Shown here: positions 36,001 through 39,000 of the stretch, one piece after another | Position numbering within the stretch: position 1 is the first letter of the stretch | How the letters are laid out: each line of letters begins with the position of its first letter | Source: Escherichia coli | GTDB taxonomy: Bacteria > Pseudomonadota > Gammaproteobacteria > Enterobacterales > Enterobacteriaceae | Strand: one strand, 5' to 3' | DNA length: 64,000 nucleotides | Assembly (NCBI RefSeq): GCF_041248615.1 | Contig: NZ_CP158426.1 | Made by a program: the position numbers

Positions 36001-39000
36001 GATAGGACAGGATGCAGTTGACGATAGAACTCATCTTCAATCTGCTCAATAGAGTTGACGCCATACAAGCTCACTTTTAGAAATTTGAACTCTGAATGTT
36101 TCTGCCTATATTCTTCAAGAACTCGTTCAATGAACCAAGTTTTACCTGATCCCCAAGCACCTTTAAGCATAATGGCGTATTGAGGTTCAGTTTTAAGGCT
36201 AAGGTAATATTCTAGATAGTCTTTGATGTACGTATTGTGCATTTTTAGTCCATTTTGATAAAATACATAAACATAGATGGTAAGTAGAGCCAAAGGCCAA
36301 CTATGGAAAACTCAATCGGTAGTGTACATTGTAAGGTTATTATTGGTAAATATTATAGGAATACCCATAATCTAACAAAATTCAGATTATCCGTTGCAAA
36401 TTAGTCTGCCATTCGCTAATTGACGAAAGATAGCACAAGAAACGTTCGCTTCTGGCACAAAGCGGACGATCACTTATAAAAATGACCGCCCACCTTACGC
36501 CTTATTTCACTCGTTGCCCAAACTAGCCCCCATTAGAATGAATCCTCCTAGGGGCAACGTTTCTTAATGCAGCCAGCTGTCATCTTCCCACACTTTCTGC
36601 ATAATTTTCATTACTTGTTTTCTTTCTTCGTCCAGTTGCAGTCCGGTTAGTTCCACACCGTTAGAGCTACCTTTGCGGATACGAATTACCGTTTTGGAAT
36701 ACAGGGGGCGCAGATTGCGGTAAAGCTCGGATTCAAGGGCGTCCAGGGTAGACTGGCTAATCTTCTGCTCTTTATCGATCATTATTTCAATGCGCATAAA
36801 AGTCACCTCAGCTGATGACATCCATTGAGCGGTTGTATTCGTGGCTTCTGATTTTTGCCATGAGTTCATCAGTCAATTCAGAAACCCACTGCAGAGCCAG
36901 CCCCTTCTCTTCATCACTACACTCACTAGCCGCTACAAGCTTAAGAAAAAAATCAATGCGCTGGAGCTTCAAAGACTCCAAAAAATAGTCCTGCATCTTT
37001 CCTCCTATGACACCACACGCAATTCTGTATGTATAACCACTGTTTATATTTACAGTATATAATAATCCTACTGATGTAAAACGTTTTTTTACGCTTATCA
37101 GCCTGATATGCCTGGTATTATTAAGAGCACGAATTGTTAACCCGCGTAATTAATACAGGTTCCGCCACTGATCATCTTCCTGCAAACGTTGGTTCCGATA
37201 GAAGATACGCAGGCCTGCTCCTGACGGAATACTGCCGCCACGAAGGAGTAAATAGACCTCTTTCTCGCTGCCATCAAATCCTCTGGACTTCAGTTCATAG
37301 ACAAGCTGCTGTCGCTGATGGTCTGTAATTCGCTGTTTGTAGTCTTTACGCCGTTTCGGTTTCACCAGGCGTAACCTTGCAGCCAGTTCCCGGCGCTCTT
37401 TTTTGCTCATACTGTGCAGGTATTCGTGCAACTCCTTGTCATCCATGCGGGTGATATCCGTTCTGGTATCTCCATCAGCTGATTTGTCTTTCCCTTGTTG
37501 GTACAAATTTTCAGCAAGGGGACAGTTATTGCCACGAGTCCAAGGGGCGCAAGCGCCCTGGTCGGCTGCCGCCTCCTGAACGTCAACGGCCTTACGAACC
37601 ATTTTCCACTTCACTGCATGAGTGCAGATCTTGCCCTCTGCAATGGGTGACCAGATGCCATAAATACGAATGCCGTGATCGCCATAGGCGGTCGGCTCTT
37701 CGTTAATTTCATAAGCAGTTCTGATGAGGTGATATTTGCGGGGAACCAGTACGCCGCCCTGCTTCATGATGTAAGTGGCAAAACAACCAGCATCAGCAGC
37801 AGCCAGGATTGCATCAAGGCGCGGGTTATCCAGTACCGGCGCACCTGCTTTTTTGTCCCCCTGTTGCCTTGCCGCCTGACCAGCCAGCAATCGCAGTTCA
37901 CGGTAAGCCTGACGCCCCGGAATGCCAAAGAAGCGGAATTGCTGAACACGATGCAGAGACGCCCAGGCATTAACGTATTCAGCGTTATCACGCAGGGATT
38001 TACCCGTTTCCTTGCTGATCTCGCCAGCCAGACCACGCCCGTCAATGTTCTTACTGATGTATTTCGCGATGTAGCTTGTTGGCGTACCTTTGCGCGGGTT
38101 TATCAGCTCAGACTTAAAGCGTGGTCCCGTGTTATTCCCCAGCTCCTCGCGGTCTTCACGAATGGCAAACTTACGCAATAAAGCAGTAATGGCGCGGCGA
38201 TCTTTTTTGCGCATAAAACACAACAGGTGCCAGTGAACTGTACCGTCATGATGCGGCTCAGCCACCCGCACGCCATACCACCGCAATCCGGCTTTGTGCA
38301 TCGCCTTACGAAATGCAGCAAACATGCCGACCAGATAATCACTGCTTTGTTTTACCGTCGCATTTGTCCAGGTTGGGTTGGGCCTGCCGTTATTTAGCGT
38401 GGAATGGAAACGTGACGGACAGGTGATGGTGTAGAAAACGGCGCAGTCACCGCGCATTTCCGCGATAAGCTCCAGACCTTTAACACAGGCCATCATCTCA
38501 TTGCGGCGATGCGCAGGGTTGCTGCTGCTGGCGTTTACCACATCCTCCATGTCCAGCGTGTCGCCGTCTTCGTTCACCAGTTCATGAGAACGGAAAAACT
38601 CCAGCGACTTACGGCGCTGCTCACGTTTATGCATCACGGCTTCATAGCTGACATAGGGGGATGCTTTTTTGCTAACCAGGCAGACAGCGCGCAACTGCTC
38701 TTCCCGCCATTCGCAACGCATCTTCCATAATTTCCGATACCACCAGTCGGCGCACAACATACGCGCCAGCGAACCCGGAATGAGTTCATAGGGCACGGGT
38801 TTACGGCGGTTTCTTTTCCGGCGGAGTTGCTCAAACGCAGGTGGGATGACATCCAGACGCAGGGTTTCCGCCGCCACCCTTTCCCATGTCTTGCGGATTT
38901 CTTCTGGCTTAACGTCATCGGTGGCATACAAATCGCCACAAGCTGCATCAAGGCACATGCTCATATGCGCAGCAACAAGGGTGGACAGGCGTTTCACCTG

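Follow-up and report, generated by a model that had tools for sequence, protein, structure and literature searches.

A probable LexA-controlled tumA-tumB (tum-dinI) antirepressor operon in a Fels-2-like, 186-type P2-family prophage of Escherichia coli

Introduction

In phage 186, the antirepressor Tum is made from the LexA-controlled promoter p95 and sequesters the immunity repressor CI reversibly (PMC7708051). Binding of CI by Tum is described for the fused 186 form only (Shearwin 1998, as cited in PMC3121763 and PMC7708051). In Fels-2 and PSP3, tum is reported to be split by a stop codon (PMC3121763). Of the two PSP3 genes, the upstream one codes for the antirepressor and the downstream one for a DinI homologue (PMC3121763), in agreement with the tumA and tumB annotation of the PSP3 record. 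Prophage DuoHS of E. coli HS contains a gene named 'tum', ECHS_RS04495, which was removed by an in-frame start-stop fusion (PMC12055606 supplement, Nat Microbiol 2025). The deletion strain shows no lysis or virion foci after mitomycin C, with the SOS response still mounted, and a lexA(Ind-) G85D strain shows neither lysis nor virion foci of DuoHS after the same treatment (PMC12055606). In Fels-2-carrying Salmonella, the DinI-like gene of Fels-2, STM2727, is the most significant gene of the LexA regulon induced by the mutagen MX, with inductions of 5.5-, 11.1- and 14.8-fold, and STM2726-2727-2728 behave as a single operon (PMC2225428). Dual LexA boxes are described in colicin operons, where two LexA dimers are bound, repression is very tight and a small fraction of cells express the operon (PMC2994835).

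Here, the window, that is, the whole 64-kb stretch of E. coli DNA analysed, was studied around a locus that a first-pass annotation had described as SOS-controlled and tum-like.

Results

Organization and distribution of the tumA-tumB locus

All features of the tumA-tumB locus and its promoter are on the minus strand (Table 1), and those that the first-pass annotation described are found where it had placed them. After the replication gene A homologue, a 153-nt intergenic region shows, in this order, the hexamer TTTACA, a 17-nt spacer, the hexamer TACTGT and TACTGTAAATATAAACAGTG. The locus shows 95.7% DNA identity to Salmonella phage Fels-2, and its region is 92-97.5% identical to many P2-family prophages of Klebsiella and E. 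coli; with the E. coli NRZ14408 chromosome (NZ_LT599825.1) the identity is 100%. It was found in 1124 of the 5426 complete E. coli genomes, about a fifth of them. The surrounding prophage is integrated between rcdA and ybjL, the site that DuoHS occupies in E. coli HS, and contains the full P2-type gene set, with regulators of the 186 type (CI, CII, Fil and an Apl/Cox-like protein).

Homology to Fels-2 and DuoHS ends at the tumB stop codon. The fold of the segment 36575..36420, which covers a long imperfect hairpin 3' of tumB, shows a z value of -5.2. As an intrinsic terminator this hairpin is unconvincing, with no U-run directly after it. The cargo located between tumB and the portal gene is unlike that of Fels-2 and that of DuoHS. 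It codes for a RES-domain protein and for a P-loop NTPase of the KAP family, the latter with a match to PDC-S49, a candidate defence system in PADLOC (E 3e-156).

Table 1. Features of the tumA-tumB locus and of related prophage genes, with positions in the window
Feature	Position	Strand	Basis or remark
Long imperfect hairpin 3' of tumB	36454..36501	-	Possible terminator or cargo-region boundary, low confidence
tumB, 77-aa DinI-family gene	36564..36797	-	Shine-Dalgarno GAGGTG at 36809..36804; start 10 nt past tumA stop
tumA, 62-aa antirepressor gene	36808..36996	-	Shine-Dalgarno AGGAGG at 37006..37001; protein identity to DuoHS tum
LexA box 2 (predicted secondary operator), CAGTGGTTATACATACAGAA	37023..37042	-	5-nt overlap with box 1
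LexA box 1 (predicted primary operator), TACTGTAAATATAAACAGTG	37038..37057	-	Intact CTGT-N8-ACAG core, conservation
-10 hexamer TACTGT, inside box 1	37052..37057	-	Same hexamer and position as annotated 186 p95 -10
-35 hexamer TTTACA of the p95-equivalent SOS promoter	37075..37080	-	Colinearity with annotated 186 p95
Replication gene A homologue	39564..37150	-	Pfam Phage_GPA, E 1.4e-127
cI, 186-type immunity repressor, predicted TumA target	42345..42914	+	Homology to 186 CI

LexA box 1 and the predicted SOS promoter

The near-consensus LexA box reported previously is present. Box 1 matches the E. coli LexA consensus TACTGTATATATATACAGTA at 17 of 20 positions, around the palindromic core expected of a gammaproteobacterial SOS box. 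It is the sole CTGT-N8-ACAG sequence in the window and the sole 20-mer with three or fewer mismatches to the consensus. With a LexA weight matrix, box 1 ranks first among 63,981 positions, and its score, 24.5 bits, is higher than the training median. The scores of this matrix are approximate; neither the ranking nor the test by consensus mismatches depends on them. Its position upstream of the 62-aa ORF also agrees with the first-pass annotation, but the gap between the box and the ATG is 41 nt and not about 45.

The hexamers of the promoter were placed by colinearity with the annotated p95 of 186, which shows a -35 hexamer TTCACA, an 18-nt spacer (by the coordinates of the record) and a -10 hexamer TACTGT within the LexA box. 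The -35 hexamer TTTACA is conserved in Fels-2 and DuoHS. A generic sigma-70 scan did not detect the tum promoter, because its -10 hexamer matches at only three of six positions. As in the Tum-type module of 186, the LexA operator overlaps the -10 hexamer and the promoter is immediately downstream of gene A. When the upstream regions of the window, Fels-2, PSP3, 186, a Yersinia phage and ESSI2_ev129 are aligned, TACTGT...ACAGT shows no variation and the flanks can barely be matched, so this element constitutes a phylogenetic footprint.

A box of this kind might be an AT-rich palindrome that resembles a LexA site by chance, at a promoter outside LexA control, and the CTGT-N8-ACAG core alone is indeed expected 0.66 times per window. 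Against this, none of 100 shuffles gave a 20-mer as close to the consensus as box 1, which stands first in the window, does not vary among phages with unalignable flanks and occupies the position of the annotated LexA site of 186; moreover, lexA(Ind-) blocks the induction of DuoHS. A chance resemblance is very unlikely, with a probability close to nil, and box 1 is predicted to be a site occupied by LexA, with indirect support from the lexA(Ind-) phenotype in DuoHS and from induction by a mutagen in Fels-2.

LexA box 2 and a probable dual operator

The second, weaker box-like sequence that had been reported as overlapping box 1 is also found. Box 2 shows CTGT on one side and CCAC in place of ACAG on the other, with six mismatches to the consensus, and ranks third among the 63,981 positions, with 13.0 bits, about the score of the weakest training site. 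Its phasing, GTGG-N8-ACAG, is kept with a variable centre in SopEPhi, ST13-OXA48phi12.1, ST512-KPC3phi13.6 and 500465-1, and SEN8 shows GTAG in place of GTGG. Only a single LexA box is found in 186, PSP3, the Yersinia phage and ESSI2_ev129.

A 56-nt query from Fels-2 matched more than 1100 plasmids, among them small mobilisable plasmids in which about 40 nt are aligned, upstream of colicin genes. Alignment with the promoters of colicin N and ColE1-type colicins shows a common two-box unit, ACTGTATATAAAACCAGTGGTTATATGTACAGT against ACTGTAAATATAAACAGTGGTTATACATACAGA: the two 20-mers overlap by 5 nt and the second core is CTGT-N8-CCAC. Judged by its sequence, box 2 is half of a colicin-type dual operator and not a stray resemblance, and it would be occupied by LexA as well.

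tumA encodes the probable antirepressor

The product of tumA, WP_001154431.1, is the same protein as the ECHS_RS04495 product of E. coli HS, and both coding sequences are identical. RefSeq names it 'hypothetical protein' and PHROG 698 lists it as of 'unknown function'; neither Pfam nor NCBIfam has a family that it matches. A pairwise BLASTP comparison between the 62-aa ORF and 186 Tum gave no similarity. An exhaustive HMMER search with TumA yields a small family of 67 clusters at E <= 0.001, nearly all of them of 50-100 aa. When a profile of 28 sequences of this family was compared with 186 Tum (hhalign), residues 3-44 aligned on residues 3-44 with a probability of 94.9% (E 4.5e-8), and intermediates, the 'tum protein' of a Yersinia phage and the homologue of ESSI2_ev129, bridge the TumA family and 186 Tum. 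This makes TumA a homologue of the antirepressor portion at the N terminus of Tum. The match of the profile to PSP3 TumA is weak (8.6%), so the link to PSP3 rests on the similarity between PSP3 and 186 and on annotation. The gene is under purifying selection (pN/pS about 0.1 at a pS of about 0.55, compared with SopEPhi-type relatives). The AlphaFold2 model of TumA is a two-helix hairpin (pLDDT 88), and among solved structures none is related to TumA by sequence.

tumB encodes a DinI-family protein

As described in the first-pass annotation, the 62-aa ORF is followed by a DinI-like 77-aa ORF with its own Shine-Dalgarno sequence, which overlaps the TGA stop codon of tumA. The 77-aa product belongs to the DinI family (Pfam PF06183, E 5.8e-22, 78.2 bits, gathering cut-off 24.2), shows 40% identity to residues 71-145 of 186 Tum, that is, the DinI-like moiety that comes after the antirepressor part, and matches the structure of E. 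coli DinI (1GHH) over residues 1-75, its full length (E 2.4e-5). It scores below the cut-off of the NCBIfam DinI equivalog, which makes it a paralogue and not the host DinI. tumB is under purifying selection (pN/pS 0.04-0.15). A longer 101-aa version from an upstream ATG, given in a mechanical ORF list, was discarded: DinI homology and the RefSeq annotation put the start at 36797. As judged from family membership, TumB would most likely attach to RecA filaments and affect how strongly or for how long the SOS signal acts.

The assignment of the antirepressor role to the upstream gene can be set against the possibility that the DinI-like 77-aa protein is itself the antirepressor, or that both proteins are required together as a non-covalent equivalent of the fused Tum, with the 62-aa ORF as a helper or leader. 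Both parts form one polypeptide in 186 and the tumA-tumB pair is co-conserved across many genera. Furthermore, with 10 nt between the genes and the Shine-Dalgarno sequence over the stop codon, a tumA deletion could reduce translation of tumB; the published start-stop fusion of tum might have lowered translation of the dinI-like gene in this way, and a contribution of TumB is possible. However, it is deletion of the 62-aa gene that abolishes DuoHS induction; in PSP3, the annotation gives TumA as the gene for UV induction and published work names it as the antirepressor; in the Yersinia phage and ESSI2_ev129, a LexA box precedes a TumA homologue and no adjacent DinI gene is annotated; and the internally initiated DinI-only products of 186 are annotated as modulators and not as antirepressor. 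An antirepressor role of the DinI-like protein, by itself or shared, is improbable. The antirepressor is very probably the product of the 62-aa ORF, with the DinI-like ORF as its accessory partner; the emphasis that the title of the first-pass annotation gave to the DinI-like gene was misplaced.

The CI repressor and prophage induction

The CI of the prophage shows 33% identity to 186 CI (E 4e-36) and 98% identity to DuoHS CI. It carries the domains PF07022 and PF16452, and its match to Peptidase_S24 reaches 16.5 bits, below the cut-off of 23.3 bits. The cognate repressor is a 186-type CI and not a self-cleaving S24 repressor, and the sub-cut-off S24 match fits inactivation of CI by an antirepressor rather than RecA-stimulated self-cleavage. 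Direct contact between TumA and CI in the 62-aa family is presumed by analogy. The requirement for tum, the dependence on a cleavable LexA and the induction of the operon by a mutagen are likewise carried over from the identical and near-identical loci in the literature, and would be expected to hold in this prophage in the same way.

It had been proposed that induction of this prophage is LexA-gated, and the results on DuoHS, whose 62-aa protein is identical, bear this out: both lexA(Ind-) and the tum deletion block its induction by mitomycin C. The mitomycin C experiment in a lexA(Ind-) background, which had been suggested as a check, is already published for this same protein behind an almost identical operator (PMC12055606).

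Alternatively, tumA-tumB could be an SOS-induced accessory (moron) operon that aids the host through DinI and RecA and plays no role in induction in this strain, for example if CI had diverged beyond the reach of TumA or if the prophage were defective. Prophage dinI genes are common LexA-regulated cargo, as in the Gifsy prophages (PMC3121763), and the function given to TumB comes from its family. CI and TumA are 98% and 100% identical to those of DuoHS, and the prophage possesses the full P2-type gene set, both of which speak against such a case; a purely accessory operon is very unlikely, and a role of TumA in prophage induction is the preferred reading.

A LexA-like site upstream of the integrase gene

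Among LexA-like sites of the window, CACTGGTTATACATACAGTG, at 43261..43280, comes second, with 22.4 bits by the weight matrix. This site takes up the spacer between the hexamers of a good promoter, TTGACA-17-GAAAAT (43257..43285), and its end lies 29 nt upstream of position 43310, where the integrase gene starts. The arms CTGG and ACAG are invariant, with a variable centre, in DuoHS, vB_EcoM-813R9, KP12 and Klebsiella phage 4LV2017, and the DNA further upstream is unrelated among those phages. The segment containing this box is present in 777 E. coli genomes. Fels-2 does not show it, because int abuts cI there.

In the papers searched, no report describes LexA control over an int promoter of P2-like phages, which is weak evidence of absence. 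The chances are about even that DuoHS-type prophages are wired to the SOS response twice, by the colicin-type tandem operator of tumA-dinI and by a LexA-boxed int promoter separate from the cI operon. If so, DNA damage itself would turn on the supply of integrase for excision.

Discussion

The locus is very probably an SOS operon, tumA-tumB (tum-dinI), of a Fels-2-like, 186-type P2-family prophage, in which LexA acts as the off-switch, TumA inactivates CI and TumB modulates RecA. In the lysogen, LexA would sit on the dual operator, with box 1 over the -10 hexamer and box 2 over the likely start site and the early transcribed region, and the two boxes together would hold the promoter off. After DNA damage, activated RecA would promote self-cleavage of LexA and the promoter would fire, giving one transcript and two small proteins, TumA and TumB. 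TumA, a predicted two-helix hairpin, would bind the 186-type CI and block its binding to DNA, the early lytic promoter pR would be derepressed, and Apl and the replication genes would be expressed, with induction of the prophage. TumB, as a member of the DinI family, would most likely bind RecA filaments and adjust how strong or how long the SOS signal is.

What was earlier inferred for this locus has been established before in loci identical or nearly identical to it, so the finding is a known one; a literature search on TumA/TumB found nothing relevant. Three minor points may be new: the connection, at profile level, of the 62-aa family with 186 Tum, a connection absent from public annotation, the explicit colinearity with the colicin dual operators, and the second LexA box, upstream of int. 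The annotation gains from the comparison, as the 'hypothetical' 62-aa antirepressor has an identical protein with a published loss-of-function phenotype. LexA and a small antirepressor should make this prophage, unlike P2 itself, inducible by DNA damage, which is relevant for predicting phage release under antibiotics, e.g. quinolones, mitomycin C and trimethoprim. The colicin-like dual operator and the int LexA box could explain the tightness and completeness of the induction gating.

Comparison with known systems

Among SOS antirepressor systems, the locus is of the Tum type, split into tumA and tumB as in PSP3 and Fels-2. The arrangement expected from 186 tum was recovered as far as the LexA-controlled module is concerned; the fused form was not, and the two ORFs are separated by a TGA stop codon and 10 nt. 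Fusion into one 146-aa polypeptide is the sole 186-specific feature absent here.

The closest relative is DuoHS of E. coli HS, which shows the identical 62-aa protein, the same integration site, the same promoter and box 1, and a CI of 98% identity. It differs in one base at the flank of box 2 (AA here and TA in DuoHS), in one residue of DinI (S34 versus P34) and in the cargo downstream of dinI. The STM2728 / STM2726.1 (STM2727) locus of Fels-2, in Salmonella LT2, shares the split tum, the dual LexA boxes and induction by DNA damage; there are two amino-acid changes in TumA, the centre of box 2 is ATATGT in Fels-2 and ATACAT here, and the Fels-2 int, which abuts cI, has no promoter of its own. 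The tumA/tumB genes of PSP3 are also split, with an upstream 60-aa antirepressor, a downstream 77-aa DinI homologue and a LexA box, but TumA is only about 14% identical, the LexA box is single and the intergenic gap is 3 nt. The p95-tum region of 186 resembles the locus in genome position, layout of promoter and LexA box, N-terminal and DinI parts and CI target; it differs in that Tum is one 146-aa polypeptide, internal starts also yield DinI-only products, the LexA box is single and orf97 follows tum. The dinI-gfoA/gftA operons of Gifsy-1/2 are LexA-controlled as well and encode a small antirepressor and a DinI homologue, but in reversed gene order, with an unrelated antirepressor family and in lambdoid phages (PMC3121763). 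Finally, the colicin operons (ColE1 type and colicin N) share the two-box geometry, in near-identical sequence; there the dual boxes control a plasmid toxin gene, and here they would control a prophage antirepressor gene.

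LexA-like box upstream of the integrase gene

The second-ranking site of the window under an approximate LexA weight matrix (22.4 bits) is a strong LexA-box-like sequence upstream of int, the integrase gene, and it lies inside a promoter (Table). The two arms of this box, CTGG and ACAG, do not vary among DuoHS (the prophage of E. coli HS), vB_EcoM-813R9, KP12 and Klebsiella phage 4LV2017; its centre is variable, and the DNA upstream of the segment carrying it is unrelated. This segment is present in 777 E. coli genomes, whereas the Salmonella phage Fels-2 lacks it and there int directly adjoins the repressor gene cI. 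These observations suggest that the int promoter of the window prophage is SOS-controlled; a literature search on P2-like phages found no report of an int promoter of this kind. Between cI and int, the window lineage and DuoHS also share an ORF of the "YdcA family", which gave no match in a Pfam search; phages 186 and Fels-2 show nothing in its place.

Features of the int and tumB flanks
Feature	Position	Strand	Remarks
RES-domain protein, 384 aa	32833..33987	-	
KAP-family P-loop NTPase, 647 aa	34350..36293	-	match to PDC-S49, a candidate defence system in PADLOC (E 3e-156)
Long imperfect hairpin, 22 pairs	36454..36501	-	a short way downstream of tumB, where cargo-specific DNA begins
"YdcA family" ORF, 63 aa, hydrophobic N-terminus	42930..43121	+	cI-int interval
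Promoter TTGACA-17-GAAAAT	43257..43285	+	just upstream of int (start 43310)
LexA-like box CACTGGTTATACATACAGTG	43261..43280	+	occupies spacer of the promoter

Cargo and hairpin downstream of tumB

The genes encoding the KAP-family NTPase and the RES-domain protein are variable cargo located between tumB and the portal gene, an interval which is a known accessory-gene hotspot of the P2 family; Fels-2 and DuoHS contain other genes at this position. The hairpin at the tumB end has a fold z-score of -5.2 and was rejected as a clear intrinsic terminator, since no U-run follows it.

Homologues of TumA and sequences resembling its operator

Most phage records name the TumA homologue a hypothetical protein, and some Klebsiella phage records (MK416009, MK422454) a "levan regulatory domain protein", probably a spurious annotation. 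The homologue of Escherichia phage 500465-1 (positions 401..589 of its locus) shows a short altered patch, GWLCSG replacing GLALQW, with few synonymous changes outside it; the patch resembles the product of sequencing errors or of frameshifts that compensate one another.

A 56-nt Fels-2 query matched 1123 plasmid records. The colicin promoters of colicin N and ColE1-type plasmids show dual overlapping SOS boxes of approximately the same sequence as the tum operator (37023..37057), a likeness which may reflect either common descent or convergence on a LexA site for two dimers.
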